Source of the DNA: Hormiphora californensis
Lineage: Eukaryota; Animalia; Ctenophora
Direction of reading: 5' to 3'
Assembly (NCBI GenBank): GCA_020137815.1
Contig: CM035352.1
Location: forward strand, 7,936,001 to 8,000,000
Length of the DNA: 64,000 nucleotides
Shown here piece by piece: positions 6,807 through 30,666 of this stretch. A program made the position numbers and the translations under genes. The notes under the pieces are model-generated. The model was not told the origin of the DNA. It was given only the letters and a program-made list of their open reading frames with translations, and did not search any database. The number at the start of each line of letters is the position of its first letter. Position 1 is the first letter of the stretch.

Positions 6807-8511
6807 AAAATCTTCGTTTAACGTCATGTTTTAAAAATTAAGCTACCCCCCGGGCTCCTCATGTGGGGTGTGGCCTTTCAGTTTTTTTAAAAATGATCAC
6901 TCTCCCAAATTCCCCGGGTATTCCCCCAAAGCCCCCCTTCCCGATTTATTCCTCTTAAATTCCTCAATCAAAACCCTTCCCCTTTTTACAATCCCCCTTG
7001 TAAAATTGGGGGTTATTTCCCCACCGGCTTTTTTACGTGCTTTATGTGATTTAAAAATTTTACTACAATGTTTTTCTGTGAAAATGGGAATTTTTCCCCA
7101 AAATAGGGGGATTTTAAACACTCCCTCATTTCAGTTCACGGTCATCCCCCAAAATAGGTTTTTTTCGGTTTTTAATTTTGTTGATTTAAAGTTTTTAAAA
7201 AATTCGTTTTTTATATGTTCGTTTAAAAATTTTTGTTAGTGTCTTTTTTGTTTTTTTTACCTTCTTTAGTTTTTGGGGAATTTTTGGGGGTTTTTTTGTT
7301 TTTTTTACGACTCGTATCGGGGAATCTTTGATCATTTTAGCCCCCATTTGGGAATTTATTTATCTAGGCTTCTTGATTTCTTTGAAAGCCAATCCTTTTG
7401 TATCCGGCCAAACTTTCTTATTTTGGTTTTCCCCCGTTTTTTTTCTTTTTTATTCCCTGTAATTTTTCGCTCCAGATAACATTCCTTTTAATCTTTAAAA
7501 AAGGGCGAGGGAAAGGGGGAAAGGGCAGATTTCGGGGATTCTAAACCCATAGGGGAGAGAGAGGGGAAAGAGGAGAGGAGGAAAGGGGAAAAATCTCTCT
7601 TTTTCCTCCTCTCTCTCTTCTCTTTTTCTCTCTCCTCTTCTCTCTCTTTTCTTCTTTTCTCCTCCCCTCTCTCTCTCTAAACTTCTCTCTCTCTTCATTC
7701 TCCCTTTTCTCTCTTTTCATTCTCCCCATTCATAAAAAGAAGGGGGAACCCGTTTTTTGCGTTTTTTTGTTTTTAAATCTCCGGGAAAAGGGGGGGTCCG
7801 TCTTCCTCAAAAAAAGTGCCCTTTGAACAAATATTATAAACAAAAGGGTTTAAAATTTAAAAAAACGTGAAAAATGTTCCCCATAATCCCCGGGGAAAAA
7901 TTTTGGTGATTTTGGATGCGATTTACAACCCCCTGTTTCTAGGGCTTTCTAAAAAATAAAAAACCCGACCTAGAACCCGTTGCTTTTGCCAGTTATTAAT
8001 CCCTTGACCCGGGATAGCCTCAAAGGACAAGAAGATACACAGACAGACGGAATAAAAAGCTACATTTTAATTATTGTTTGCTGACTCTGAGCGCTTTTGA
8101 ATGATTGTTGCATGATAGATGCAGACTGCAGCTACAATTACTAGCTTCACCTGCTTACTAACTGCTATTACAGCTGTTTCACCCAGCCGTATCTTACAAT
8201 ATGTATTTTTGTGATGTCCTAAATTATCTATTATCTCACCCTAATTATCTAGTCAGATAGCTGTTTAACCTTCTGCCTGCCCTGTTAACCCCATATTAAC
8301 CCTATCTCTACCCTGTTAACCTCTTGTTAACCCCATGTTAACCTTATATCTTGTTATAGCACCACCGCCATGGAGTTTCTCAGGGCGGATGCTGCCAACA
8401 ACGCCCCCCCCCCCCCCGCCCCCTGTCTTGTTACCCCCCCCCCCCTAGGCCTACCCTGTTAACTCCTGTTAACCCCATGTTAACCGTATATCTTGTTATA
8501 GCACCACCGCC

Positions 8512-10817
8512 ATGGAGTTTCTCAGGGCGGATGCTGCCAACAACGCAGGCACGGAGCAGTTCTCCGATAAGAAAATGGTGTGGATTCTTGACAAGGAGAA
8601 GGGCTTTGAGAAGGCAGCCATACTGGAGGAGAAGGGGAGATAATGTGCTGGTCCAGAAAAATGGAACTAACGAGGTTCGTGTCCTAATACTAGTTGTTAC
8701 CATGGTAACCTCTTCAGTGAAACTCTTACCCCTGTTTCAATTTGTTGGCCTTACCCCCCCCCCCCATTCAGGAGTTGACCCTGAAAAAGGAGGACACCCA
8801 GCAGATGAACCCTGCTAAGTTTGAGAAGCTGGAAGATATGGCCAATCTGACGTATCTGAACGAGGCCAGTGTCTTGCATAACCTCAGGCAACGATACTTC
8901 TCCTCCATGATTTATGTGAGTGGGTTTGTTTGTTTGTTTGTTTGTTTGTTTGTTTGTTTGTTTGTTTGTTTGTTTGTTTGTTTGTTTGTTTGTTTGTTTG
9001 TTTGTTTGTTTGTTTGTTTGTTTGTTTGTTTGTTTGTGGGTTCTTATAGGAACATGAGTGCAGCTCGTGTTATCGGATCAGTGTGGTACACGTGCCGGGC
9101 CGTTATCAAGTGTGATTGTACTGAATTGTCAGTCCTTGTTCCTATCTCTCGAGAACAGCTGATCTATCGACTCCATCTTTCTCTCTCTCTCTCCCCCCCT
9201 CTCTCTCTCCATCTTTCTCTCTCCCTCCCTCCCTCCCTCCCTCTCTCTCTCTCTCTCGGTTGTAGGGTATTACACTCAGAGGCCTGTCATCAAGTATTCC
9301 CTACAGCTGCATTGCAACCGACATCTCTATCTCCCACCCACTGACTCACTACTGACTCACTGAGCTATACAACTACCACAAAGAGAATCAGTAGAGAGAG
9401 ATTGAGTCGAGAGAAAAAGAGAATAGTGTAGAGAATAGTGCAGATTGAGTCGAGAGAAAAAGAGAATAGTACAGTGAATACTACCAAACCTAGATTAGAT
9501 AAAAGCTAACGGGAAGTTAACTAAACCTGGAACCCCCTATTTCAGTTAAGTAAAACCCCATTTTCAGTTAACTAAACTTCCTCTTTTAATTTCAGACCTA
9601 TTCTGGTATATTCTGTGTGGCGATCAACCCTTATGCCAGGCTACCAATCTATACCAAAGAAGTCATCCAGTCTTACAGGGGAAAACGGTAAGCACTACCA
9701 TAAGCAAATTAGGTCGTTATCATGCATGAAGAAGGTAAACAAAATCAATTTGTGTATCAAATTGAATATCATTTAGTTAGATGCTAAGTTAAAAACCCTT
9801 CAGGCGAACGGAGATGCCTCCTCACATCTACACTGTGGCTGATGAGAGTTACCAGCAGATGATCCAGCAGAGAGAGAACCAGTCCATACTGATCACTGGG
9901 GAATCAGGCGCAGGGAAAACTGAGAACACTAAAAAGGGTATGTTATTTTAATTAATTAATTAGTTATACGGAATGTGTTATTAATTTCCTAATTAGGAAA
10001 CCATCATTTAACATCTCAATTAGTAAATAAACCATCATTTAACACCTCCTGCCTATTATAGTTATCCAATACTTTGCCACTATTTGTGGGGTCGAAAGTA
10101 AAAGTGTCGACGGATCACACCTCGATGAACAGCTGGTGCGGTGTAACCCTGTTCTTGAAGCATTCGGAAATGCAAAGACCATCAAGAACGATAACTCGTC
10201 CCGGTTCGGGAAATTTATCCGAATCCACTTTGGAGCACAAGGGAAAATCCATAGGTGAGAGCATCCATCCTCCCTCTCCCCTCATCCCCTCCCCCTTTTT
10301 TCTCAGTTATCCAGTATTTTGCATCGGTGGTAGGAGTAGAACATGGCCCAGGGCACGTTCCCGATGATACAGCCACCAAAAAGACTGGTCTGGACCAGCG
10401 TCTTGTCCGGTGTAACCCCGTCCTGGAAGCTTTTGGAAATGCAAAAACTCTGAAAAACGATAACTCCTCGCGTTTTGGAAAGTTTATCCGAATTCATTTC
10501 GGTGGTTCTGGCAAGATTCATAGGTAGAGAGGCGTGTGTGAAATGAAATACTTAATCAAGCTGGAATGCTGTGCATAATATCATGAAAATAGTTTGAAGT
10601 GTGTGATCTTTCTGCCCCAAAGTGTGAAGTGTGAGTTTAACATTTCCACAAAGTGTGTGAAGTGTGAATTTCACATTTCCACAAAGTGTGAAGTGTGAAT
10701 TTCACATTTCCACAAAGTGTGAAGTGTGAATTTCACATTTCCACAAAGTGTGAATGTGTGAATTTCACATTTCCACAAAGTGTGAAGTGTGAATTTCACA
10801 TTTCCACAAAGTGTGAA

Positions 10818-10849
<32 letters not shown>

Positions 10850-13800
10850 AGCAGCAGTTCATGAAATTAAGTGTGTGGAAGTCTAGTACATATAACAACA
10901 GGTGATATTACACTCTCATGAAAACCAATTTATACGCTGGATCGGCTATTCTGATGATTGAGTTTTTGCTGGTATTGATGTGCTGAAACCACCATCCACT
11001 TCCCCTATCCTTCGATCTCCCGAAACCTCCATACATTTCCTTCTCTCCTATCTTGTCCCCCCCCTGTTTGAAACTACCCTGTACCACACACTTTATCTTT
11101 TGGTTTTGTTTTTGAGTTTGCATCCCAACATATAACGCAGATCTAAATCCATTCTATCTCTAACTCGCATAATTCCAGTGCTGATATTGAGCGTTATTTG
11201 CTGGAAAAGGCTCGAGTCACCTACCAGAATCCTGATGAGAGGTCTTTCCACATTTTCTATCAGATCCTCAAGGGAATGAGCCCTGAAGAATGTAAGTGTG
11301 TAATGCGAATCACGCGTTGTGCACCACGCGTTGTGCATCACGCGTTATGCGCCACGCGTTGTGCATCACGCGATGTTATCAGTAACGCCAATATTCTCAC
11401 ATGATATTTCATATCACCCCCTGTAGTATTTCACAAGCAATAACAACAATTTCCCTGTTATAGTGAGCGACTGTCTGCTGACGAATAACCCCAACGACTA
11501 CTCGTTGCTAAGTAACGGAGATATCATTGTTGACTCTCTGGCGGATGTGGAGTTGTGGCAGGAAACAAAACAGTGCATGGCCGTCCTAAACTTCTCCGGT
11601 ACGATTCACAATAGCATACACGTGTCTTTTGGGGGTAGACATGAGTCCACCCTAGATAGAAGTCGTTAAATCTCAACTTCGTCAATTTGTTATTACCGTT
11701 CTTTTGGGGTGCTTATTCTCTGCTATTATAATGTACAACTAACCCCCCTCCTTCCTTCAGATGAGATGATGAACAAGATATTCCGGTTTACTGCTGGTAT
11801 CCTCCACCTTGGTAACACCACCTTGAAGGCGAATAAGAGGGATGAGGGGTGCTCTATTGACGATACTCAGGTACATTTGGAAACACATGGAACAATGATA
11901 CCACTTTTTAATTCAGTTATTTCCAAGTTTACTTTACTGCACCTTACTTTTTCCTCACCTTAACAACCCAACACTCTCACTGAACAGCTAACTAATTTGT
12001 TTCCTCTCTGCAGTGGATAGAGAAGGCGTGCCACATGTTTGGAGTTAACGCGGTAGATATGACTAAGGCCCTCATCAAACCCAGGATCAAAGTGGGATCT
12101 GAATACGTTCACAAGGGACAGAATGCCGACCAGGTATACCTATAATGAGTAGAATGAATTATGATGAATAGAAATATTGTTCATAATTATTAAATTACAA
12201 ACTGACAACTCCACGCCTATGAATTAATCAGATTTCTGTTTCTTGCCCCTTCTCTGGAGTCGTTTTGACTCAGATTAAACACATTGCATTATCCCTGATC
12301 TTGACAACTAAATGATACACCCATCAGTATAATATCCCCTAACTAAATAACACCCCCACTAGGTGAAACACAGTATCGGTGCTCTATGTAAGTCCATCTT
12401 TGAGAAGATTTTCAAGCTGGTCCTGGACATGTGTAATGAGACACTGGAGACAAAGTTGAGGAAGAATTTCTTTATTGGAGTTCTCGATATCGCTGGTTTC
12501 GAAATATTTGACGTGAGTTATTGTCCTACTTCATGTACTGGACACACAGACTGTGTATAAATGCTAGTTTTCAGACTGAGTTTGTACTACTTCACCGGGT
12601 ACAGATCATCTTTATTAGTTCCTTGGACACACAGACTTGCTTATGCGATCTGATCCCTGCAAAATAACTGAGAACTAAATTATCACGACTTCTCTCTTCA
12701 CAATTTCTAACCCTCTCTCTCCCTCTCTCAGTTCAACTCGTTCGAGCAGCTGTGTATTAACCTGACCAATGAGAAGATCCAACAGTTCTTCAACCACCAC
12801 ATGTTCACGCTGGAACAGGAGGAATACAAGAAGGAGGGAATCAAGTGGGATTTCATCGACTTTGGGCTGGATCTGGAACCCACAATTGAACTTATTGAGA
12901 GGGTAAGTAACACCAACCCCCCTGATTTAGCTAACAACCCTCCCCCACTTCTCTGCTCCCCTGGCCCACCCCTATCTCTCTGGGTCTAGAACAAACCATT
13001 GAACTTATAGAGCGGGTAAGCTTTACGATTATATTCAGGTTTTCCAAATAAGAGCTGGTTTACGATGTATGGCATTTCGTGAAACTATTCTTCTGTACAT
13101 CTGCCCTCCAGTTGCGTTGGCTAACACCTCCGCCTTTATCTAAGACCACCACCCTCCTCTCTCCCATCTTTAGCTAACACACCCCCCCCCCCATTCCAGA
13201 ACATGGGAGTGTTTGCTGTGATGGATGAGGAGTGTATTATGCCCAAGGCTACTGACGCCACCTTCCTCTCCAAACTAAACGGCATCCACCAAGGGAAAAA
13301 CCCGAAATACCAGAAACCCTCGCCAAAGAGTACGAACCACCACCGTCACCATGACAACCACCGTTACCATGACAACCATCATGTGGTTGATTTGAGGGGT
13401 GGCCGCAGTGTGATCTGGTCAAGGGAGACAGACTCAGTTACACTGTGGCCATCCGGACAACAATTTAAACAGACCCACATTACATCATGTACTGGAAATA
13501 CTGATTTTACTGACAGTTGAGATTTTGACTGACAGAGTGACAGTTGTGATTTTGGCAACTGTTCGTGCTGTCTCCACGCAGGACGAAAGGTTCAACAGCG
13601 CCATCAAATATGGTACTTCCTCCATCCACATAACTCAGTTCCTTACTCCACAGGTCAAATGGGAGAAAACCCCGTCAGTTTCCAGATAGTCCACTACGCC
13701 GGTGCAGTGGGATACAACGTGGATGGGTGGTTGGAGAAGAACAAGGATCCACTCAATGAGAACGTGGTTGAGCTATTTGTAAAGAGCAGGGAGCCTATCT

Positions 13801-15816
13801 TCGCAAAGTTATTCGAGGCAAAGGAGGCTGCAGTGTCTACCAAGCCTGGAGCAAGGAGGAAGGGAGGTTCTTTCCAGACTGTTGCCATGATTCACAAAGC
13901 TGCCGTGGAGCAACTTCTGACTACCCTCCGATCTACCACCCCACACTTTATCAGGTACATTACTAAAGGTCAAATCATCAAACACATCATCATATACTCA
14001 ACTGAAGTATTATTTTTGGCAGAGGAGAAAGAGTAACCACTCACCCAAACCAGGTGCAATGGTGTATTCTACCCCCCCCCCCCCCCCAACACCACCCTTC
14101 TAATTAACCCCCTTTCCCCAATCCCCATCCAGGTGTATCCTGCCCAACATGAAGAAGAAGAGTGGAATTATCGAGGCTAAACTAGTTCTGGAGCAGCTGA
14201 GGTGTAACTGGTGTGTTGGAAGGAATCAGGATTGTCCGAAAGGGTTTCCCTAACAGGCTCATGTACTCAGAATTCGTACAGAGGTATGTGATAGCACTGG
14301 TACTGGTTACATAAGGGCAGGTGGTGGACTGCTCGTACCCTGTTTTAAATAGTACCTGAGTTTAATTCAGGAGTCAGGAGTAGTGATATTCCCCCATGTC
14401 GGTCTCAACTCCAATTATAATTCCAGGTACACCATCCTGGCTCCTAGTTCCATTCCTGCTGGATTTATGGACGGGATGAAGGCGACAGAGAAACTGGTGG
14501 AGGCCCTTCAACTGGAGGAGAACAGCTTCCGAATGGGTCATAGTAAGGTAATTAATTAATTAATGGGCCATAGTAAGGTAATTAGTGTGATGAATAATGT
14601 GACATTTGACATTACGAGTCTTGGGATCTCGAACTGTCAGGATAATTGTAGCAGCTCGGTGTTTATCCTAAATCTATCACAAATCTATCCCAAACCCAAA
14701 TATACTGCACAGTGCATAGCGATAGAATCTAAAAATCTCCCCTGATCCCAATCTCCCCTGATCCCAATCTCCCCTTCTATCCCAGATATTCCTGCGGGCG
14801 GGAGTGATTGGCTACCTGGAAGACTTGAGAGACCAGCGGGTAAAGACCGTTCTGATCGGGTTCCAGACCCTAGCTCGAGGATGGCTGGCTAGAAAGCAGT
14901 TCAGGAAGTTGTTGGATCTGAGGGTGGCCTGTATTGTGGCTCAGAGGAACACCCGGCAATACTTCATCTTAAGGAAGTGGCAGTGGTGGAGGCTCTTTAC
15001 TCGAGTCAAGCCACTTCTGAGTGTTACCAGGTGAGTGGCAGTGGTGGAGGCTCTTTACTCGAGTCAAGCCACTTCTTAGCGTCACCAGGTTAGTGGCAGT
15101 GGTGGAGGCTCTTTACTAGAGTCAAGCCACTTCTTAGCGTCACCAGGTTAGTGGCAGTGGTGGAGGCTCTTTACTCGAGTCAAGCCACTTCTTAGTGTTA
15201 CCAGGTTAGTGGCAGTGGTGGAGGCTCTTTACTCGAGTCAAGCCACTTCTTAGTGTTACCAGGTTAGTGGCAGTGTTGGAGGCTCTTTACTAGAGTCAAG
15301 CCACTTCTTAGTGTTACCAGGTTAGTGGCAGTGGTGGAGGCTCTTTACTCGAGTCAAGCCACTTCTTAGCGTCACCAGGTTAGTGGCAGTGGTGGAGGCT
15401 CTTTACTCGAGTCAAGCCACTTCTTAGCGTCACCAGGTTAGTGGCAGTGGTGGAGGCTCTTTACTCGAGTCAAGCCACTTCTTAGTGTTACCAGGTGAGA
15501 AGAGATGGTAGTAAGGTGATGTTATTGGGGTCGGTCCATGGTTTGGTGATGTAGACATGAAGTGACTCATAATTATACTGGTATTATTAATTTGGTAGGG
15601 AGGTGAATTTTGTTTGCTAGCTAGCTACGAATTAGGGGGATAGAAAGAGTCATATTAGCATTGAATAGCTAGAGGAGACAGGTATTATAGTGATGTTATG
15701 CGTCATTAGGTATTCGATAAGGTTTCCCCAGCTGTAAGATATTTCAATGAAGCTACGCCCAAGTTGTAGTTTCTCTCTCTATCTCTCTATCTCTCTATCT
15801 CTCTATCTATCTCTCA

Positions 15817-15872
<56 letters not shown>

Positions 15873-18800
15873 ATCTCCCTCTCCTTCTCTTCATTATTAT
15901 GTAACCTTTCAACCCTGACTGCCTTTTCCTCTCTTCTCACCCTTTACTTATACGCAGCCTAGTACAAGTATTATCTCATCCCATGGAATGTCCTATAAAT
16001 CCATGAACCTAAATCTCATTCTTCCGAATGCTCAGTTGTCGCCCCGCACAACCACACTCCCCCTCCCCCTCCCCTATCGACCAAGTCCCATCTGCCCCAT
16101 CTGCCGCTCCTAACATCCACTACCTCGATAACTCCCGGTTATTATAACACCACTCCCCACAGGCAAGAAGAGGAGTTCAAGGACAAAGAAAAGGAGATGC
16201 TAAAAGTGAAGGCTGCAGTTGACGAGACCAAGGCAGAGAATGCTGAGCTCCAGTCCAAGATGGAAACCCTGAGTTCCGAGCACTCTAAAATCAAGGACTC
16301 GCTAGAGAAGGAGCAGCAGGCTGCGATTGAAGCAGAGGAACAGTGTACCAAGTTGGAGGGGATGAAGCAAAAACTAGAGGATGAAGTTGCTGTGAGTGTG
16401 GTTTTGTTTCGTTCAATTTGTACCACTGAATCAAAGTTGGTAGTCACCAATTTACCAATTTACCAAGGTGACTGATATTGTATGAAGTTCATCGAATATC
16501 CAACAACCCAATCTCTCAGGCCCTTATGGAACAAATCGACGAAGAACAGGATAACAACTTCAAGATTTCCTCACAAAAGAGGGCCCTTGAGGCTGAGTTA
16601 TCGGAAGTGAAGGGTAACCTGGAGATACTGGATTCTAATCTCAAGAAGGTACGGGAGATGTAGACCCCCACACCCCCCCCCCCCCCCCCCCCTCCGAATC
16701 CCGATATAGATCGGTGTAGTTGACACAACTAAGTTACAATCACCTGTTTTCTCTAACCTCTCCCCAGGAAGAGCCTATTTCTCCACTCTCCAGCTTTTCC
16801 TTACCCTTCCCCTCCACAGAAAGAGCAAGATCTGCACCGGAAGGAAGATGCCCTGGCCGCTAAAGAAGAAGAGTCAGCTAAAAAGGAGGAGGAGCTAAAG
16901 AAGCTGGTTGAGAAACAGAAGACAATGGAGGGAAATATAGCTGACCTTGAGGTCTCCCTGGGTTCTGCTACTGAGAAGGCAACCAGTCTGGATCGAGCAA
17001 AGAAGAAGCTGGAGGGAGAACTGAAACGTAGGTTTTATAATAAATCAGCTCCTAGATGTGTCTTGACATCCTCTAAATCCGTCCCAAATACAGTAATAGC
17101 TGGTTTAAATTCCCCTATTTTTCAGGATTTGAGGATGAATTAGAGGCTGAGAGAAAGGCCAAGGCGGCTCTTGACAAGTCTCTGAGAGGAAAGGAGGCTG
17201 AACTGAAAGACGCTAATGTCAAGATTCAGGAATTCACCGAGTGAGTCATATTTAGAAGTATCAAACCAAACATGTTCATAAGTTCGATTACCACGGTTCT
17301 AGGTCTGAATCTGAATACAATCAGTACATTCAGTATTCAATGCATTCAGTGGATCAGTAGTTAAAACATCTCCCCCTAGTGCTAAATATCTCCCCTAGTG
17401 CTAAAGCTGCAGTAGAGGCTGAGCTGAAGAAGAGAGATGGGGAACTGTTAGCCAGCCAGACTCAGCTTGAAGAGGAACAGGAATCTGGACAGAAGAAGGA
17501 TCGGGTGATAAAGGATCTGAACAACAAGATACACGATCTAGAGGAGGAGCTTGAGGTAATTTAGTAATTAAGTGATGTTAGATCAATGATCAATGATTCT
17601 TTCAGTTTACTAATATTTGTTTGACTTTATTTTCAATATTTTGACAATCTCTAGCTTCTCCAGCTCTTTCTAATCTCATCTCTCCTTCCTTCTAACCAGA
17701 TCACTATCCTCCAACTCACCATCTCCCTCCTTCTTTAGAGTGAACGTTCATCCAGGGGACGAGTTGAGAGGCAGTGTAAGGAACTGGACCGTGAGCTACA
17801 GGATCTTCAAGAGCGACTGGAGGAAGCCGGTGGTGCCACTGCTGCTCAGGTACAACTCCAGTTACCATGGTTACCATTGTGTGTTACCATGGTTACCATA
17901 TGTAATTGCGTTTTAACCCACCAAGATTGGGTTATATTTTAGTTACTGTGCAGTGCAACAAGTCTGCTGGACATGTCTGTTTGTCTGTTTGGGTGTGTGT
18001 GGTTAGGGCTGTAATGGTTTGATCTAGTTGACCCTTGATCGTGTTTGTTTGGTATATATCACGTGACTCACATCACATGACCTGGAGGCTGGAAAGAGAG
18101 ATAGAGAGAGGGGTAGTAACAGTGTTTCTGATTGAGTTATACACCACTCATACACTCTTTGATCTCGACACGCCTCCTGTGTTTTCTCTGATCCCTTTGT
18201 TACGTGATCCTGTATTTGATTGTTTGATTGATCCTGCAGGAGTTCTGATTGAGTTCATATCTCACTTTCCACCTTCCACCTTCCTTCCCCACAGTATTAA
18301 CGACATTCCAACTCTCACATCACGCAGTTAGCACCATTCTGTCAAACTGGCAATCTGAGCCAACAGCACAAGATCCTGAAGTCACCTAATTAACACCACA
18401 CCATCACCACCATCACCATCACAAGATGAACAGCTCAATATCCCTACTTGATCTGTCTGATCTGTCATCCTCTGATTACTACTCCACCACTAACACTTCC
18501 ATCTACAGTAACTACACAAGAAAGGTACCCCGCCCACATTTCACAGCAACCAATGTTATAGTTAACACTGTACAGGGTGTCCCATTTCTAGTATTAGAAA
18601 ATGAAATGATATTGGAATAGTAAAGAGAAACCCTGTAAAGAACGCCCTAGTTTATAATAACTCTGTAACTCTAGTTTATAATAATCCCCCTCCCTTAGTT
18701 GGATCTGAACAGGAGGCGAGAGGAGGAGATAATCACTCTCAAGGCAGAGCTAGCCGCTAATGAGACGACCCACAGTGATGCTATTGATGCCCTGAAGAAG

Positions 18801-21800
18801 AAATTGGCTGATGTCACACTGCAACTTGAGGAACAAATTGACCTGGCCAAGAAAACCAAGATCAAGTAGGTTGTTGTGTGGTTCACACCACAGTGCGATC
18901 TGTAAGGGTTCACACAGCTGAGATATATCCAAAATTATATCTCTTCCACTAAATTCTTTACTAATTACTAGTAAATCCCCTTCATTAATGACAATATTCC
19001 TACCCCCTACCAGGAACGACAAAGACAGGAAAGCAGCCCAGGAAGAGATCGACCACCTGAATGAGGCCCTGGACACCATCGGGAAGCAGAAGGGAAACCT
19101 TGACAAGACTGTGAGGGTACTTGACGAACAGCTTGGTGATGCTAATAGTAGGTGTTCTCAAATGGAGACCAATCTGAGAGAACTTGCTGATAAATACAAC
19201 AAGTAAGTGGGGTGACCAATCTGAGAGAACTTGCTGATAAATACAACAAGTAAGTGGGGTGAACTGTCCTTACAATATTAGTAAAAAGAAGTTTTTTATG
19301 CAGAGAATATTGTGGTGCATAGGGGGCTCAGTGAAACAGTTCATAGACTTGATCAACTTGTTTTACACTTTCTTCTCCCCCCTAGGCTGGTGAAGGAAAA
19401 CAACGACTTTGCTCAAAAGATAGAAGATATGGAGTCCAAGGAGGCCATGTTGAGCAAGAGTAAGAAGGGACTCCAGAGCCAGATTGATGATCTTGGTGGT
19501 CAGTTGGAGACTCTGAACTCTGAGAAGAATGGAGTGCAGACCCAGTTGAAACAGGCCCTCTCTGAGATTGAGGGACTTCAGGAGGAGGTGGAGATGGTAA
19601 GTTCTTGAGAACTAGAGATCTAGTCAATGAGTTGAGTTGAAGTGAGGATGAGATTTAATATTTTCATGAGTTATAGAACTGTTTTCGAAGTAGAGCATAG
19701 TGTCGCTGGATAAAAGATCTAGATTATAGAAAGCTATAGAACAAAATGAAAGAGCTAACAATCCTCTTCCCCACTCCAGGCTACAAGTGAGAAGGAAGAC
19801 AAGGAGAGAATGCTAGGAATCCTCCAGAGTGAACTAAACACAGCCCGTAACGCCATCACCAACGAGCACGTCCCCCGAATCGAGGAGCTGGAGGGAGAGA
19901 ACAGGAAACTACAGGTTAAGATTACTGAACTCGAGGACGCAGTTGATGAGTCCCAGACCAAGGCAAATAACGCTGAGAAAACCAAGAACAGGATTACGAT
20001 GGAGTTGGAGGATACTAGTGTAGAGTTGGATCGAGTGAAGAATGACCTGAGTAGCATGGACAAGAAGCAGAGGAAGGTGGATCAGATGATGTCAGAGTGG
20101 AAGGGTAAATGTGATCAGGAGACGGCTAAGAATGAGGGTCTGGTCCGAGAGATCCAGAAGATCTCCACTGATCACATGAACCTGAAGAACACTAATAATG
20201 AGATACAAGAGGAGTTGGATGGTGTTCGGCGGCAGATCAAATCCCTCCAAGCGGAGAATAATGACCTGACTGAACAGTTGGAGGGAGGTGGTAAGGCTAC
20301 CCACGAGATAGAGAAGCTGAGGAGGAAGCTGGAAACTGATAATGAGGAACTGAGGGGTCAGTTGGAGGAAACAGAGGGTCTACTAACTATGGAGGAGAAC
20401 AAGACCAGCAAGCTGCAGTTGGAGTTGAGTGGAGTTAAGATGGAGATGGAGAGGAGGTTGGGAGAGAAGGAGGAGGATAGTGATAAGGATAGGAAGAACC
20501 TATTGAGGCAGATTGACACCCTTCACCAGCAGCTTGAGGATGAAGCCAAGGTTAAGAATGACCTGGCTAAGGCAAGGAAGATGGCTGAGGGAGAGGTCGG
20601 TGGGCTACACGAAGATCTGGATAATGCAGAGAAAACTATCGCAGCACTCAACAACAACCTGGGTAAACAACAGAAGGGTATTCAGGAGCTGCAGTTGGCC
20701 TTGGAGGATGCCAACAAGAATGTCGAGAACCTGAAGGCAGCTCTGTTGAAGAGTGATAAGAAGGCAACCTCTCTGGCTACCCAGAAGACTGATATTGAGG
20801 GATCCTTGGAGAGGGCTGAGAGGCAGAGGAGGACCCTTGAGAATGAGAAGGGTGAGCTCACATCTCAAGTTGCCACTCTGGAGAGCCAGAAGGCTAGTGC
20901 GGAGAGTGGAAGGAAGAAGCTGGATGCGGAGTGTCATCAAATGAGGGACTTTGTGGAGGATCTAGAGGGAGAGAAGAGGGATGTGGAGATCCTGCTGCAG
21001 CGGGCTAATGATGCTCTTAACAGGTGGGTGTGTTTGTTTGTTTGTTTGTTTGTTTGTTTGTTTGTTTGTTTGTTTGTTTGTTTGTTTGTTTGTTTGTTTG
21101 TTTGTTTGTTTGTTTGTTTGTTTGTTTGTTCGTTTGTTTGTTTGTTTGTCCCTTTCTGACACTATAGACCTCATAAATAGCTATACTTCTAGAGTTCAAA
21201 ATTCCAACCAATCTCTCTCTCAGGTGCCAGAGTGAGCTGAACCTGGAACAAGAAGCCAAGGGGAACCAAGAAAGGGCATGCCAGACCCTCACCAGGCGTA
21301 TTGTGGAGCTTGAAGGACAACTCGAGGATGCCGAGAATGCTGTCAGGTAAGACCCGTTACTCTCTCCTGGTGAAAGTAACAGTCTCTCCGGCTCTCTCCT
21401 AGTTAAAGTAACAATCTCTCCGGCTCTCTCCTAGTTAAAGTAACAATCTCTCCCTGCTCAGGTCAGCCGGTAAGGGCAAGATCCAGGTTATGGAGACTAA
21501 GATCCGAGGACTGGAAACCGATATTGATGCGGAGATGAAGAGACGAGTTGATGCTGAGAAGGTAATTCTACCAATTAATCACTAATTAACAATCAACAAT
21601 TGTCTACTGACCACTCAATCCTTCGTGACTCATGATCTCTAATGTAGTGTTTGGGTACCTTGTGGATCACTGACCAATTACCAAGAATTTTGGCAAGGCG
21701 TCCAACCAGTTAGGTCATGACCCCGCACCCCGGTCCATGTGATTCATGATCTCTAACATACACTGTATCTCCCAGGCTCTGAAGAAGGCAGAACGAGCTA

Positions 21801-23331
21801 TCAAGGAGAATGCCTTCAACGCCGAGGAAGATCACAAGACAATCCAGAGACAACAGGGAACCATTGACATGGGAAATAACAAGATCAAATCCTTCAAACG
21901 TCAACTCGACGAAGCGGTACGTTTGTTATCTGATTTATATTAGGTTGTCCTAAAATTATTACGCATTTACTGACTGATCATTTTTAACCCACTAACTAAT
22001 TAGCTAATTAACCCCTACAGGAGACCCATTAACTAATTAGCTAATTAACCCCTACAGGAGACACAGATCCAACAGCTAAACAGCAAGTTGAGAAAGGCCC
22101 AGAATGAAGTTGCTGAGGCAGAAGAGAGAGCCGACATGGCAGAGAGTTCCTTGTCCCGGGCATCTACCCGAAATAGAGCCGCCACTGCTCGACTGGGACG
22201 ATCGGTATGTTGAGTCACTCAATCACTAGTAAAATATAGCCATTGATTGTGCATTAGTCAGTTTGCACAATATGATTCCAATCACAGGACGTGCAGGGTA
22301 GCCCTCGAACGGTAAGAATCGCCATTGTACAAATAATAGCTGTGTTACCATAGCAACCCTGAGAGGTGTTACCATAGCAACCCAGAACCCTGGGAGGTGT
22401 TACCATAGCAACCCTGGGAGGTGTTACCATAGCAACCCTGGGAGGTGTTACCATAACAACCCTGGGAGGTGTTACCATAGCAACCCTGGGAGGTGTTACC
22501 ATAGCAACCCTGGGAGGTGTTACCATAGCAACCCTGGGAGGTGTTACCATAGCAACTCTAGGAGGTGTTACCATAGCAACCCTGGGAGGTGTTAACATAG
22601 CAACCCTGGGAGGTGTTACCATAGCAACCCTGGGAGGTGTTACCATAGCAACCCTGGGAGGTGTTACCATAGCAACACTGGGAGGTGTTACCATAGCAAC
22701 CCTGGGAGGTGTTACCATAGCAACCAGTAGCATTTGATATAAAATAGCACTGTTCATATATGGGAAGTTGTACTGGGCTTGGTAAATGTTATCAACGTTG
22801 TTTTCATTACGTTACTCATTCTAGCCGCGTGTTTTAAACATCAGATGGCCGGTTCTCTCGGGAAGTTTCTAATTTCATTATGTCATGCATAATAATGTAA
22901 TAATAGCTCATCATATAATGACATCACACATTCTTGCCATGTGTGATCACTATAATCACACCTAAAACGTGGTGACATCACACATCCTAATCACACTAAG
23001 ATTTCACACGCCCACTTCCAGGACTACGTACCGAGGAATGCCCGAACCCGAGGAGGAGATGAGGAGGAGGAATAGAGAGAGTATGTGAGGTAAATAGTGA
23101 GGGTGACGGGGGACACTTTTGGGAGGGGTAGTTTAGCATGGTGCATGTTGCAGATTTGTAGCATTAATCTCTCTCAGCCATACTTTGTTAATAACCCCTC
23201 TCCCATTTCTCCAGGCGTCTCTCTCGCAGTCTGTTGGGGTCAGGAGAAAGAGTGCAAGCACTAGGACCCCTGTACCAACATCCCCAAAACTTGGCCGGGA
23301 CAGCAGTGAACCACCTGCAACCCCTCAGTAA
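8512..23331 (+). CDS. Mhc: Class II myosin heavy chain, striated-muscle (ST-MyHC) type. Exons: 8512-8674, 8772-8915, 9596-9687, 9804-9937, [10062-10254 | 10307-10523], 11179-11291, 11464-11598, 11761-11870, 12014-12133, 12363-12512, 12732-12902, 13200-13329, 13654-13954, 14133-14283, 14427-14547, 14786-15030, 16163-16391, 16520-16648, 16820-17027, 17126-17240, 17399-17555, 17739-17849, 18699-18865, 19014-19202, 19386-19596, 19780-21023, 21224-21346, 21462-21561, 21776-21916, 22058-22204, [23022-23075 | 23215-23331]
   Basis: Manual splicing with GT-AG and phase-consistent exons. Motifs: [28 protein letters not shown]-loop GESGAGKT, switch [10 protein letters not shown], switch [21 protein letters not shown], loop 2 [16 protein letters not shown] hook, long heptad rod. 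Kozak CCGCCATGG. Two single-base insertions (~8634-8637 G-run; 14209) must be removed; both are probably consensus errors. Confidence 0.95.
8924..9036. repeat. (GTTT)n microsatellite in myosin intron 2
   Basis: Direct read; a similar tract is at 21030-21148. Confidence 0.95.
10062..10254 (+). CDS. Mhc: Myosin mutually exclusive exon 5a ([64 protein letters not shown])
   Basis: TAG acceptor, GTGAGA donor, phase 1 to phase 2, 193 nt. Confidence 0.9.
10307..10523 (+). CDS. Mhc: Myosin mutually exclusive exon 5b ([72 protein letters not shown])
   Basis: CAG acceptor after a pyrimidine tract, GTAGAG donor, same phases as 5a, 217 nt. Confidence 0.9.
10620..10845. repeat. ~30-32-bp tandem repeat (AAGTGTGAAGTGTGAATTTCACATTTCCACA) plus (TG)n
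   Basis: About 6 copies in the intron after the MXE pair. Confidence 0.85.
14976..15498 (+). repeat. 58-bp tandem array (9 copies) of the myosin exon 16 3' end plus splice donor
   Basis: Units end in ACCAG|GT at 15030, 15088, 15146, 15204, 15262, 15320, 15378, 15436, 15494. Confidence 0.95.
18051..18070 (+). promoter_or_regulatory. Putative internal promoter elements (TATATA, E-box CACGTG, TGACTCA) upstream of the candidate rod-isoform exon
   Basis: Sequence GGTATATATCACGTGACTCA; motif match only. Confidence 0.3.
18426..18524 (+). CDS. Candidate internal alternative first coding exon ([33 protein letters not shown]) for a headless myosin-rod isoform
   Basis: 33 codons from ATG to an AAG|GTACCC donor in phase 0, matching the phase-0 acceptor at 18699 ([10 protein letters not shown]). 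Sits in an 849-bp intron, longer than the flanking rod introns and free of obvious repeats. Confidence 0.6.
22288..22311 (+). CDS. Mhc: Candidate 24-nt frame-preserving micro-exon (DVQGSPRT) in the myosin tailpiece
   Basis: CACAG acceptor, ACG|GTAAGA donor, phase 0/0. Confidence 0.5.
22344..22724. repeat. 24-bp minisatellite x16 (GTTACCATAGCAACCCTGGGAGGT); most units carry an RFX X-box-like palindrome
   Basis: Direct read of units. Confidence 0.93.
23022..23075 (+). CDS. Mhc: Myosin C-terminal exon variant 1 ([17 protein letters not shown]), a stop-containing cassette exon with donor at 23081
   Basis: CCAG acceptor, phase 0, TAG, then AGAGA|GTATGT. Confidence 0.75.
   Translation, partial: DYVPRNARTRGGDEEEE
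23215..23331 (+). CDS. Mhc: Myosin C-terminal exon variant 2 ([38 protein letters not shown])
   Basis: Pyrimidine tract plus CCAG, phase 0, open for 38 codons. Confidence 0.75.
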   Translation, partial: ASLSQSVGVRRKSASTRTPVPTSPKLGRDSSEPPATPQ

Positions 23332-23553: not shown

Positions 23554-23559
23554 AATAAA
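23554..23559 (+). terminator. Polyadenylation signal AATAAA of the myosin gene
   Basis: ~220 nt after the last stop, followed by GT/T-rich sequence. Confidence 0.6.
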
Positions 23560-24039: not shown

Positions 24040-25651
24040 ATGTTTATTCTAGAGGGTGTTCTAGAGGGTGTTCTAGAGGGTGTTCACTTCTCACATTTCT
24101 TTCACTTCTCACATTTCTTCACTTCTCACATTTCTCTTATCTATTTCACTTCTCACATTTCTCTTATCTATTTTGTATCTCGAGCAGCGCTCTGCATACT
24201 TGTACAACTGCTAGTGTTCCTGACCTAGTAAACCTGTACTGGCCAACCAGTTCCAGATGGATCGAGCGTTCTCAACATGGCAACATTCAGTTCCTGGCGA
24301 CAATGCAGGTGTAGCGGACTTCATCCGGCTAGAGACCTCAATCCTGGCTACTATGAGGAGAATCGGGGGCTACCCTGACTCCAACAAGGAGGGTGGTGAA
24401 TTTGATCCTAATAAGATCACTACCAGCAAACTATCGAGTCTTGACACCAACAAGAAGGTAAAGTTGATTGCAGACATGGCCGGTCTGCTCTGGTTCCGAG
24501 CTCTGCCCCTGTCGAAGTTAGCTAGAAAACAGTTTGAGCTAGTGGAAGAAAAACCAAATCTTGACGAGTCTAAGGAGAAGGTGGAGAAACTACTGGGACA
24601 CTTAGAGCACACCAGAGACCGTCTCGACACTGTCAAGGACGAGCTACTGGAGCGTGACAGGAAAATGATCACCCTTCAAGAAGAGATTAGTGCCCTAAAA
24701 GACTCCATTATATCGATGAAGGATTCTCAACTGGAGAGTAGCATCAGTGCTGTCCAGACTGTTGTAAAAGAGGAAATGAACAGCTATTCATCTGCCCTTC
24801 AGAGCGCTGCTACCAACATGAAGCAGACGTGTGTATCTGCTCTAGCTCCCACCAAGATACGTGCTGCCCTGGCCAGCGCCACAGTTGACCGATCTGCGAA
24901 TCTGATAGTCTATGGACTGGCCGAGAACAATGATGACAGCGACTCTACCAGGGTAAAGGAATTGTTTCAGAATTTGGCCGAGGCACCTGTTTTGGTGGAG
25001 GTTGATAGACTGGGGAGGAGGCGTGAAGAGCATGTGCGTCCTGTTCGTGTGGTATTGAGGAGCAGGGAAGTAGCTAGGACTATTTTGGGCAAATCTGCTC
25101 AGCTGAGGGACTCCGATACTCATCAGTCTGTATACATTTCCCCAGACAGAACTCTAGAAGAAAGGGCTGAAAGGAGGGATCTTGTTGCCAGAATGAGAGA
25201 GAAGAGGGAGAGAGAGCCAGAGAAGGTTTTTAGAATCAGGAGAGGCTCTGTTATCGAGATCAATGAGTGAGTGATTTTATGTGTGAGAAGGGAAGAGACT
25301 GAGCTGCTATATCGTGTATGTTCGCTTGGGTGAGAATGAGAACGAGAGAGGGAGACATGAGCTTTGATATAATACCACTACATATTCACTTCATTTTACA
25401 GAATTTCTATAATTATTACCATTATTACCTTTGAAGTGTGAAACATATTGTTCGGACACGGTGGGTACCAGGGTGGGGCATTCTGGTAAACGCACACAAA
25501 AGACCTTACCCGTCTTCGTGTTATTAGCCTTGATGCGTCACCCTGTATCCCCACCCAGTTTTGTCCAGTATGGCTGGTTTTCTTGACATTATATATTTAA
25601 TTTCGGCACATGCCACTGCCAGCGGCAGTTTTGATTGATTGATTGATTGAT
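24040..25651 (+). mobile_element. Non-autonomous ORF1-only non-LTR retroelement with (TTGA)n tail; 5' boundary approximate
   Basis: Repetitive 5' UTR (TCTAGAGGGTGT x3; CACTTCTCACATTTCT repeats), ORF1, ~360-nt 3' UTR, microsatellite tail 25630-25651, no ORF2. Confidence 0.65.
24257..25270 (+). CDS. LINE ORF1p-like protein (coiled coil + RRM-like + CTD), 337 aa
   Basis: Intronless. Heptad region followed by NLIVYGLAE...RLG...RPVRVVL...YISPDRTLEER, the motif pattern of L1/CR1/L2-type ORF1 proteins. Confidence 0.8.
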   Translation: MDRAFSTWQHSVPGDNAGVADFIRLETSILATMRRIGGYPDSNKEGGEFDPNKITTSKLSSLDTNKKVKLIADMAGLLWFRALPLSKLARKQFELVEEKPNLDESKEKVEKLLGHLEHTRDRLDTVKDELLERDRKMITLQEEISALKDSIISMKDSQLESSISAVQTVVKEEMNSYSSALQSAATNMKQTCVSALAPTKIRAALASATVDRSANLIVYGLAENNDDSDSTRVKELFQNLAEAPVLVEVDRLGRRREEHVRPVRVVLRSREVARTILGKSAQLRDSDTHQSVYISPDRTLEERAERRDLVARMREKREREPEKVFRIRRGSVIEINE

Positions 25652-27390: not shown

Positions 27391-27419
27391 TCTGATAGGT
27401 TAGGTGCGAGAAATAGCAG

Positions 27420-28134
27420 GCGACTCTACCAGGGTAAAGGAATTGTTTCAGAATTTGGCCGAGGCACCTGTTTTGGTGGAGGTTGATAGACTGGGGAGGA
27501 GGCGTGAAGAGCATGTGCGTCCTGTTCGTGTGGTATTGAGGAGCAGGGAAGTAGCTAGGACTATTTTGGGCAAATCTGCTCAGCTGAGGGACTCCGATAC
27601 TCATCAGTCTGTATACATTTCCCCAGACAGAACTCTAGAAGAAAGGGCTGAAAGGAGGGATCTTGTTGCCAGAATGAGAGAGAAGAGGGAGAGAGAGCCA
27701 GAGAAGGTTTTTAGAATCAGGAAGAGACTGAGCTGCTATATCGTGTATGTTCGCTTGGGTGAGAATGAGAACGAGAGAGGGAGACATGAGCTTTGATATA
27801 ATACCACTACATATTCACTTCATTTTACAGAATTTCTATAATTATTACCATTATTACCTTTGAAGTGTGAAACATATTGTTCGGACACGGTGGGTACCAG
27901 GGTGGGGCATTCTGGTAAACGCACACAAAAGACCTTACCCGTCTTCGTGTTATTAGCCTTGATGCGTCACCCTGTATCCCCACCCAGTTTTGTCCAGTGT
28001 GGCTGGTTTTCTTGACATTATATATTTAATTTCGGCACATGCCACTGCCAGCGGCAGTTTTGATTGATTGATTGATTGATTTGCATTTCTCGACCCTATC
28101 TCACCACCCTCTGGGTTAGAAAATGGTCCAATAT
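27420..28134 (+). repeat. Direct duplicate of 24939-25705 (3' part of ORF1 element plus 3' flank) with a ~50-bp internal deletion
   Basis: Near-identical sequence, including the flank beyond the (TTGA)n tail. Confidence 0.9.
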
Positions 28135-28261: not shown

Positions 28262-30527
28262 CTATAGCTCGCTTTTAAAGGGGTAGTTGATATGTCCCCC
28301 GAAGTGCTTCACTCCACAGGTCCTGTATCCAGGAGCAGGGAAATCCTTGGAAATGTCACTCAACTTATCGACCTCCTCAGAGGACAGAGAGAAGCCAGTT
28401 ACTGCCAGATTCTCAACGATTCGAGAGGGAGTGACACTCTTGGGAATCACAGCGTTACCTGACGGAATGAGAATGTAAATTATATACATAATTAGATGAT
28501 CAAGAGGGGTACCAAATATTCATACTATTCTCAAGTAGCCCACATAACAGGTGATTTATTAGAAGAACACTCTTTTGTGTTCAGTAACCAGAGACCTCAT
28601 TAAGTAGTAGTAAATGGCTAGAAACAATAAGACATGATAAATGTTGCAGTAGACATGAGATGGTGTGGCCATATGGAGGAGAGTGTGAGAGATAGAGTTG
28701 CTCGACCCTCTCTCTCTAATTGCGAACAAAGAAGGACGTTTGAAACAAAGATAACAGGAGTAACTTGATACTGTTAACTGTAAAAATGAACAATTCAAGA
28801 AGTCCTCGACACTCAAACGTAGGTTCTGGTTATACCTTGATTGACCCTCTCTCACCACGCCCCATGTTAGAACCTATAACAATTAACGTACCCTTATCCA
28901 CCTGGTACCGGATTAGTACTTGTCCTGGTGTCACACTATGTGCCTCAGCAATACCCTTCACAACCTCATTCTCCAGCAGGTTCTTCTGTTCTGGCCTCCT
29001 GAACTTGCTGCCAGGGTTCGCTGAAATGGGAGATGTTGGAAACATTGGGATGTGGTGACTTGGGCGGTATTGGGATGCATTGGGACTGGCTGGTAACGAA
29101 ATTACCCCTAAATAGGGCATTGCGATAGTAAGGCACGTTTTAGCGTGCCCACAATGTAGGGGTAATTGCGTTACCAAGGGGACTGGGCGGTATTGGGAGA
29201 GTTGGATAAAATAGTAGGGATAAATGAAAAATCCCGTATCTCCCCGACACTGTTTCAGTTCTAGCAATCATTACCTAGAGGGCTGTATGCTACAAAAGCG
29301 ATGCCCATTCTTCTTACAGTACTCGAGCAGCCCAAGGTTAGGGAGCTGGGGGTGGGATTCAACTTGCAGACAGGCTGGCTTTATCCTGCAGTCGGTAACA
29401 ATTGACTCAATCTGAAACGTGCTGTAATCAGTTGCCTTGCTCGACCTCATTTCACCGCGCCCCGGCATATGTAAAGGAGGATTAAAACGTAACAAGTAGA
29501 AGGGATGGTGGTGAAACAAAGCTAAAAGTTGCTAAATTTGCTAATTTGTTAGTGTAATGATTAGGATAAGGTAGAAAAAGATAGGTAGGCGGCATTGTCC
29601 CAATTCAACCGGTCATTGGCCATCTGTTTCCGGTCTACATTTGCTGTGTACCTATTGCCCCTCTATCCCCCTGTATGTTTACCTGTTCTATATTGAAGTT
29701 TGAGAGACCGATATTTTTACATTTCCCCTCATCCACGAGTTTCTCCATCTCAGTCCAGACTTGGGCAAATGTTGGGTTGCTGGGGTCGGGGATGCACTTT
29801 CCTTCATCATCAAGGGGGAAGAGACCCTTCTCGTGCTCTGGGTGAAGGTGCATGGGCCAGTGAATCAGGTAGAGATCCAAGTAGTCCAGTTGGAGGTCAG
29901 AGAGGGTCTTGGCACAGGCTGCAGCAACCTGATAGAAAGGGTGTTAGAACTTAGAAAAGGATGATCGATATAATATTCACAAAACTCAAACTATAAAATC
30001 TGATTAACTGCTGAATCAAAAGTCATCTTTCACTCATGGGCCCTTGTGCATAAGGTCCCCAACTGCAGGGGTTCACGCCCATGGCAACCACTCTTCAGTC
30101 TTCAATCAAATCAAACAAAAAAGCTTACCTTGTCGGGACGCTGGTTGGTGCACCATAGTTTGCTAGTAACAAACACTTCCTCTCGCTTCACCTCCCCAGC
30201 AGAGAACACCTTGTTAAAGGCAGCCCCAACCTAAAACATGAGGGGTAATACACATGAGACAATAAGAGTGGTTTACATATAATATTGGTTCCCCTTACAC
30301 CTGTTAAAACAATATTCCATTTATACTTGAACTAGAGGTAACCAGTGTCCTCTAAGTGGTTTTACCTCTTCCTCGTTGCAGTACACCATGGCACAATCAA
30401 TGTGTTTGTAGTTGTTATTCAGGGCATGTTCCACGGCAGCCCCAACCACACCAGGGTCACTCTGCCAGGTTCCCAGACCCACAACGGGCATGTCACTAAC
30501 TCCACATTGAATCGTTGGCATTGCCAT
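28262..30527 (-). CDS. Aldo-keto reductase (AKR1-like). Exons 30527-30366, 30230-30129, 29928-29683, 29411-29275, 29020-28892, 28458-28262
   Basis: [13 protein letters not shown] (catalytic D, Y), VTSKLW (K), LDLYLIHWP (H), GLSNFN, QVESHP, AYSPL, VIPKS. One extra G at ~29304-29306 (probable homopolymer error). Confidence 0.92.
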
Positions 30528-30666
30528 GGCAGATGAGGAGGTGCTATTAATGGGACAGTTATAATTAATTGGTTACACTGGCGAGTGGCTTTTTTTGTCT
30601 ATTAAAGTGTGCTCTCAGCTTTTTGAAGTTAGAAGGGCCTGAACCCTTCACCTCACCTGGTGCTTG

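Follow-up and report, generated by a model that had tools for sequence, protein, structure and literature searches.

A candidate internal start for a motor-less rod isoform within the class II myosin heavy chain gene MHCIIb2 of the ctenophore Hormiphora californensis

The window considered here, by which we mean the whole stretch of 64,000 nucleotides of Hormiphora californensis contig CM035352.1 (positions 7,936,001 to 8,000,000 of the forward strand), holds a class II myosin heavy chain gene, the features of which are collected in Table 1. The large rod exon of this gene matches three ctenophore myosins at 73-76%, with the other matches at or below 38% (the next being 37%) among the 120 matches listed. 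Set by eye against the PpiMHCb2 sequence given in the supplement of PMC3502136, two blocks of 100 residues from the window differ at 6 and 2 positions, respectively, and the gene carries the loop-1 mutually exclusive exon pair and a tail matching PpiMHCIIb2. According to PMC3912159, the alternative exon pair at loop 1 is a mark of Mnemiopsis Mhc2, the orthologue of Pleurobrachia pileus PpiMHCIIb2. The exon pair and the closeness to PpiMHCb2 thus identify the host gene as MHCIIb2, and the candidate internal start discussed below is found to sit within a striated-type (MHCIIb) myosin heavy chain gene.

Table 1. Features of the MHCIIb2 locus and of the candidate internal start (positions in the window)
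Feature	Position	Strand	Remark
Host gene, class II myosin heavy chain MHCIIb2/Mhc2 paralogue	8512..23310	+	Start codon 8512 to alternative tail exons; exon map by tblastn
Loop-1 mutually exclusive exon pair	~10061-10254 and 10307-10523	+	Known cluster-0 of ctenophore Mhc2
Last rod exon before the intron	17739..17849	+	Phase-0 donor; acceptor junction seen in RNA contig
Phase-0 intron, 849 nt	17850..18698	+	Acceptor position conserved in lobate ctenophores
TATA-like, E-box, AP-1-like cluster	18052..18078	+	Candidate internal promoter
ATG-free stretch, 346 nt	18080..18425	+	Candidate outron or 5' leader
Possible 5'-UTR intron, 182 nt	18113..18294	+	Weak donor after 18112 (score 3.4); would be an alternative to trans-splicing
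Orphan splice acceptor, exon from 18295	18265..18294	+	Candidate spliced-leader or cis acceptor
S/T/Y-rich leader frame, 33 codons from ATG	18426..18524	+	Ends AAG/GT, phase 0; exon-like synonymous codon use
Orphan acceptor 2, within the leader frame, with branch-point motif	18479..18524	+	Would define a 16-nt micro-exon, 18509-18524
Predicted short-transcript intron, 174 nt	18525..18698	+	Donor atypical at +5
Eight shared rod exons, 774 codons	18699..22204	+	Start corresponds to human MYH7 residue 1161
Pair of alternative tail exons (product of 824 or 845 aa)	23022..23330	+	Both tail types occur in lobate isoforms

On the same strand, the reading frame of the host gene shifts inside the motor-domain exon 14133-14283, which is probably a sequence error. 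Eight tandem copies, each of ~58 nt, of the 3' end of exon 14786-15030 occupy 15033-15504 (+), with a donor-like site after each of them, and exon starts or ends are duplicated locally into adjacent introns several times (8340-8400 versus 8480-8540, and at ~12990, ~19210 and ~22020, +). In the non-repeat parts of the intron 22205-23021 (+) there is no clear equivalent of the optional pre-tail exon of 13-17 aa of lobates.

The intron 17850-18698 holds the most non-repeat sequence of the 29 introns of the gene (716 nt, the next holding 517), and five lobate read-through genomic proteins (P0139, P0141, P0297, P0299 and P0303) enter exon 18699 at the identical codon. A first-pass annotation had claimed that this intron contains an ATG-initiated, Ser/Thr/Tyr-rich frame of 33 codons that ends at a donor in phase with 18699, that TATA/E-box-like motifs lie ~370 nt upstream of it, and that the 774 downstream codons and a tail would complete a headless rod. 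All of these elements are present in the DNA: 18 of the 33 codons of the frame are for S, T or Y, TATATAT lies at 18053 and CACGTG at 18060, and the junction 18524^18699 fits in frame and phase, and, with one or the other tail exon, a headless product of 824 or 845 aa (93.5 or 95.4 kDa) is predicted. The DNA thus shows directly the signals, the phase in which they stand and the size of the product. It is also noted that the intron would divide into two introns of 182 and 174 nt, sizes that are typical for this gene, and that the start context at 18426 is C/A-rich, similar to the three other starts examined.

The elements listed in the first-pass annotation are weak on their own, as can be seen from the frequency of chance frames, the atypical donor and the non-significant motif and period-3 signals. 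Of 2000 dinucleotide-shuffled versions of the intron, 598 contain an ATG..GT frame of at least 33 codons with an equally good donor. The donor after 18524 has a score of 1.9, lower than that of any of the 31 true donors (2.8-11.2 in a leave-one-out model), and carries C at +5, which occurs in none of these 31. The 12-nt E-box/AP-1-like motif is matched at one mismatch in 28 of 100 shuffles and is not significant, and the period-3 bias of the leader frame is unremarkable, being reached by 19% of 721 intron windows.

The synonymous codon use, on the other hand, is exon-like. The codon score is 5.5 in the leader frame versus -5.6 and 0.0 in the other two frames, a value that is reached by only 1 of 2239 overlapping intron windows, by 2 of 5000 base shuffles and by 37 of 5000 dinucleotide shuffles, and the score is strongly negative both immediately before the ATG at 18426 and immediately after the donor at 18524. 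Among the 17 in-phase ATG..GT frames found in 24 introns, the leader frame alone scores above 0.1. Across the whole stretch, 29291 stop-free windows lie outside the myosin exons, and 1355 of them also reach the leader codon score; by our reading the latter are mostly other genes, antisense strands or repeats, with some unexplained. As regards composition, the 18 S/T/Y residues are reached in 5 of 5000 base shuffles and the absence of P, H and Q in none of 5000, so that both go beyond base composition and favour coding, while a decayed short repeat could mimic them. The ATG-free leader, the frame and the exon-like codons occur together in 0-3 of 3000 shuffles, a figure that, like the other shuffle figures, overstates the case because the criteria of the combined test were chosen after the sequence had been seen and the splice-site and codon models were trained on one gene, the host gene alone. 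Another stop-free intronic stretch, at 13543-13653 (+), is the only other intron window with such exon-like codon use; there the opposite strand scores too.

Upstream of the frame, at 18052-18078, lie motifs that we take to be TATA-like, E-box and AP-1-like. An ATG gap as long as 18080-18425 is found in 14-18 of 3000 shuffles; three other introns of the host gene have longer ATG gaps, all of them repeat-rich. Within this gap the acceptor at 18295 reaches a score of 14.4, which exceeds that of 29 of 30 true acceptors and of all 328 decoy AGs of other introns. It lies 131 nt upstream of the ATG at 18426, which is the first ATG after it. Shuffling yields a strong acceptor followed by a first-ATG frame in 9 and 22 of 2000 cases at a strict threshold, and in 121 and 250 of 2000 at a loose one. 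For the second orphan acceptor, at 18509, the score is 13.3, and a branch motif precedes it by 19 nt. Since this acceptor lies inside the leader frame, part of the frame could be the end of an intron. Two minor observations may be added. A strong orphan acceptor (score 13.2) at 16738-16768 (+) lies 52 nt before the used acceptor 16820 and looks like a duplicated acceptor; and an exact 13-nt direct repeat (18126-18138 and 18243-18255, +), within the candidate promoter/outron, occurs nowhere else in the window.

The orphan acceptor, the ATG-free leader, the codon use and the intron sizes thus add support to the internal start for a headless rod that the first-pass annotation had put forward, while its paramyosin part, as discussed below, does not stand. 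On balance we consider it rather probable that the intron 17850-18698 holds a real internal start, leading to a motor-less rod isoform of 824-845 aa.

The available RNA gives the following picture. Contigs of three runs, none of which contained half of the sequence words searched for, were matched to the window at 85% (all three runs) and 80% (two of the three). Those of run X1 confirm three ordinary junctions of the host gene, including 17240 to 17399, and the contig coverage excludes 17908-19018, a gap that takes in both junctions into 18699, namely 17849^18699 and 18524^18699. The same run contains a 3234-nt MHCIIb2-like contig of another ctenophore, placed at 19162-19202 and 20008-20088. 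By its length this contig ends ~400 nt past the join, near the size that a short transcript would have. It showed no match to the exons upstream or to the leader, which says nothing at a divergence where matches are sporadic.

Among annotated proteins, head sequence is present in all eight Bolinopsis RefSeq isoforms, in four Mnemiopsis sequences and in two further full-length proteins, so that a headless isoform is absent from these. Among the nine matches shorter than 1068 aa, P0136 alone spans the join as a spliced product, with ordinary myosin upstream, and no headless ctenophore protein was recognised among the best 150 of a representative search, in which the ends of 17 were read and 26 proteins of 700-1300 aa were aligned. 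As the retrieved proteins include no Pleurobrachia protein over the join, these negative results on a headless isoform apply to lobates only. None of six candidates proved to be a homologue of the leader peptide, which also matches no Pfam family; the Rfam search gave one match (E 0.88), far below threshold, and in the viral scan none of 601 stretches matched. A metagenome scan returned two loci, L001 being a genomic fragment, Bolinopsis-like, that begins only after the intron, and L002 a distant match. The literature searched (with subscription journals outside its scope) did not turn up a headless myosin isoform from a ctenophore, and the parts of PMC13579702, PMC5253434, PMC2215185, PMC3502136 and PMC3912159 that were covered make no mention of one.

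For transcription, splicing, translation and function we infer the following pathway. Transcription would be driven by an internal promoter at ~18053-18085 and would start near 18085, past the TATA/E-box cluster. The RNA would then be spliced at the acceptor 18295, so that the internal start is probably entered either by spliced-leader trans-splicing or by way of a short untranslated exon, ending at 18112. In Hormiphora, spliced leaders are reported on 56% of Iso-Seq reads (PMC8527503). Ribosomes would scan the 131 ATG-free bases and begin at 18426, and 18524 would be joined to 18699. The product would retain the distal S2 and the whole of light meromyosin, including the assembly region, which we take to be located at the C-terminus of light meromyosin. 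With the distal S2 and the full filament-forming tail kept, it would, by analogy with myorod, co-assemble with full-length MHCIIb2. By the same analogy, the short rod may dilute or space the motor heads, with the effect tuned via phosphorylation of its S/T/Y-rich end.

The same observations can be explained in other ways, which we weigh against the internal start. It may be that the frame arose by accident in a long intron rich in C/A and poor in G, one that possibly holds an enhancer or an old local duplication, and that neither splicing nor translation ever uses this frame. The weak donor and the frequency of chance ATG..GT frames speak for this, together with the further orphan acceptor at 16768, the many local duplications of exon ends in the gene, the lobate annotations without a headless isoform and the fruitless search among the six peptide candidates. 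But under this explanation it would have to be accidental that the acceptor, the ATG-free leader, the codon use and the boundaries of the frame coincide, and no sign of duplication could be detected between the two orphan acceptor regions, 18295 and 16768 (an equally good alignment is obtained in 60 of 500 shuffles); we hold a chance frame to be unlikely. It may also be that the full-length transcript includes the region as an exon with a stop, leading to mRNA decay if rejoined to 18699 and otherwise to a short, non-filament-forming two-headed myosin. Both acceptors, 18295 and 18509, are strong, each gives a stop at codon 1 or 2 when joined from donor 17849, and variant poly(A)-like hexamers lie at 18600 and 18619. 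Such an exon would leave the ATG-free leader, the coding-like codons and the upstream motif cluster unexplained, and 18295-18698 has no canonical AATAAA, whereas the gene end has one at 23554, and we give little credence to it. Finally, only the 16-nt micro-exon 18509-18524 may be real, included in a full-length motor isoform, e.g., from donor 17240, with a net loss of 84 rod codons. The score of acceptor 18509 and its branch motif are consistent with this, and 17240 to 18509 is the sole stop-free in-frame join of the 10 tested; but one in-frame join in 10 is expected by chance, such a deletion is absent from the ctenophore isoforms examined and the RNA contig shows the normal join of 17240 to 17399, which makes the micro-exon hardly credible.

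Returning to the internal start, the predicted form can be compared with the known headless rods. Catchin/myorod, of molluscs, is a headless product made inside the Mhc gene (Yamada et al. 2000, cited in PMC3912159 and PMC12040844). The likeness is that an S/T-rich first exon of its own is joined to the C-terminal rod of a striated-type Mhc gene, as is predicted here, and the shared rod is of similar length, 830 residues in catchin/myorod versus about 791-812. The differences are that the unique end is 156 aa in catchin versus 33 aa here, with sequence homology between the leaders not found, and that catchin is a proven catch-muscle protein whereas the ctenophore form is a prediction in a gene reported to be non-muscle. 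The position of entry also differs. The ctenophore join corresponds to human MYH7 residue 1161 and to position ~319 of the 1081-position Myosin_tail_1 model, while catchin joins at MYH7 ~1113 (Figure S3 of PMC3912159, placed by alignment here), i.e., ~48 residues earlier. Myorod is reported to lie on the filament surface and to co-polymerise with myosin, its N-terminal phosphorylation changing the myosin ATPase (PMC4410989). The S-rich, DY-containing look that is common to catchin leaders was set aside as a low-complexity resemblance and not counted.

In Drosophila, Mrp arises from an alternative internal start of Mhc (Standiford et al. 1997, as cited in PMC3912159), and an internal start within the Mhc gene is likewise what we predict here. 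According to PMC3912159, Mrp enters ~260 residues before catchin, at the rod exon that first follows the light-chain-binding region, a position that is not matched by the join described here. The same source describes the N-terminus of Mrp as poorly conserved even between related insects, which is a warning against counting on conservation of the leader here. The ctenophore form would work like catchin or Mrp while not being homologous to them in position.

Bilaterian paramyosin is a motor-less coiled coil that is homologous to the distal myosin rod, of similar size and with short non-helical ends. The first-pass annotation had taken the short product for a paramyosin-like protein of the thick-filament core, either independently evolved or ancestral to paramyosin. 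The protein P0224, which we take to be paramyosin-like, aligns from residue 1087 of P0001, where the join is at 1137, so that its rod starts 50 residues earlier. Paramyosin is a separate, diverged, core-forming gene, whereas the ctenophore rod exons are myosin's own. Paramyosin is described as forming the filament core (PMC12040844). In Pleurobrachia pileus, MHCIIb2 is reported to be expressed in nerve cells, oocytes, and comb and canal cells, and to be strictly non-muscle (PMC3502136), so that to speak of a muscle thick-filament core is an assumption. With the join 48-50 residues past the starts of catchin and of the paramyosin-like protein, with rod exons that are myosin's own and with a gene reported as non-muscle, the core reading is not upheld. 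Nor do we find support for an ancestral form of paramyosin, as the entry points differ and the Aurelia paramyosin-like protein is separate and diverged. The similar size, the S-rich non-helical end and the rod homology are what would suggest that the short product is real and is the precursor or equivalent of paramyosin in the core of muscle thick filaments; against this, besides the position of the join and the non-muscle expression (PMC3502136), the rod is identical to myosin's own, as in the surface-located myorod (PMC4410989), and we regard such a precursor as very improbable.

Other routes to a rod-only protein are known. Lottia Mhc8 is a stand-alone form that starts at the catchin position (PMC3912159), and the Aurelia paramyosin-like protein, which is non-bilaterian and rod-only, is stand-alone and less than 30% identical to myosin rods (PMC5958069). 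The short isoform proposed here would have an origin separate from those of catchin, Mrp and paramyosin, and may be confined to cydippid ctenophores.

The internal start, if true, would bear on the published expression of MHCIIb2. According to PMC3502136, the tail sequence alone was known for MHCIIb2 at the time of the expression report. We suppose that the probe for the P. pileus gene lay in the tail. The 5' end of the P. pileus b2 contig falls at codon 51 of exon 18699, within the part common to the short form and without the head, while the b1 sequence, unlike b2, extends into the head; the headless 5' end is equally explained by 3' bias. As the known PpiMHCIIb2 tail is entirely common to the predicted short form, the reported expression could reflect the rod and not the motor. 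This expression has served as an argument for the independent origin of ctenophore muscle, and Kollmar and Hatje found it "very difficult to interpret". A wider proposal, which we offer only tentatively and with more doubt than confidence, is that comb jellies have invented a catchin-like headless myosin independently by means of a leader-spliced start within MHCIIb2, that the rod, not the motor, makes up much of the expression in nerve cells, oocytes and comb cells, and that within non-muscle myosin filaments of these cells the rod serves as a spacer or scaffold tuned by phosphorylation. If the internal start is true, a rod-only isoform would have emerged for a third time from within a striated-type myosin gene, here at a new site and in a lineage outside the bilaterians, and headless rods would be a recurring solution in the design of animal filaments.

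Several other features were seen in the window. A coiled-coil frame of 348 codons (24224-25267, +), with a partial second copy at 27404-27793 (+), has a weak Pfam match and presumably resembles a retroelement ORF1. At ~28800-30600 on the reverse strand lies what we take to be an aldo-keto-reductase-like gene. An uninterrupted frame of 725 codons (37823-35649, -), with cysteine-rich repeats and several hydrophobic segments, is presumably like an LDLa-containing GPCR, and a frame of 574 codons at 51875-53596 (+) has what we assume to be PH-like domains.
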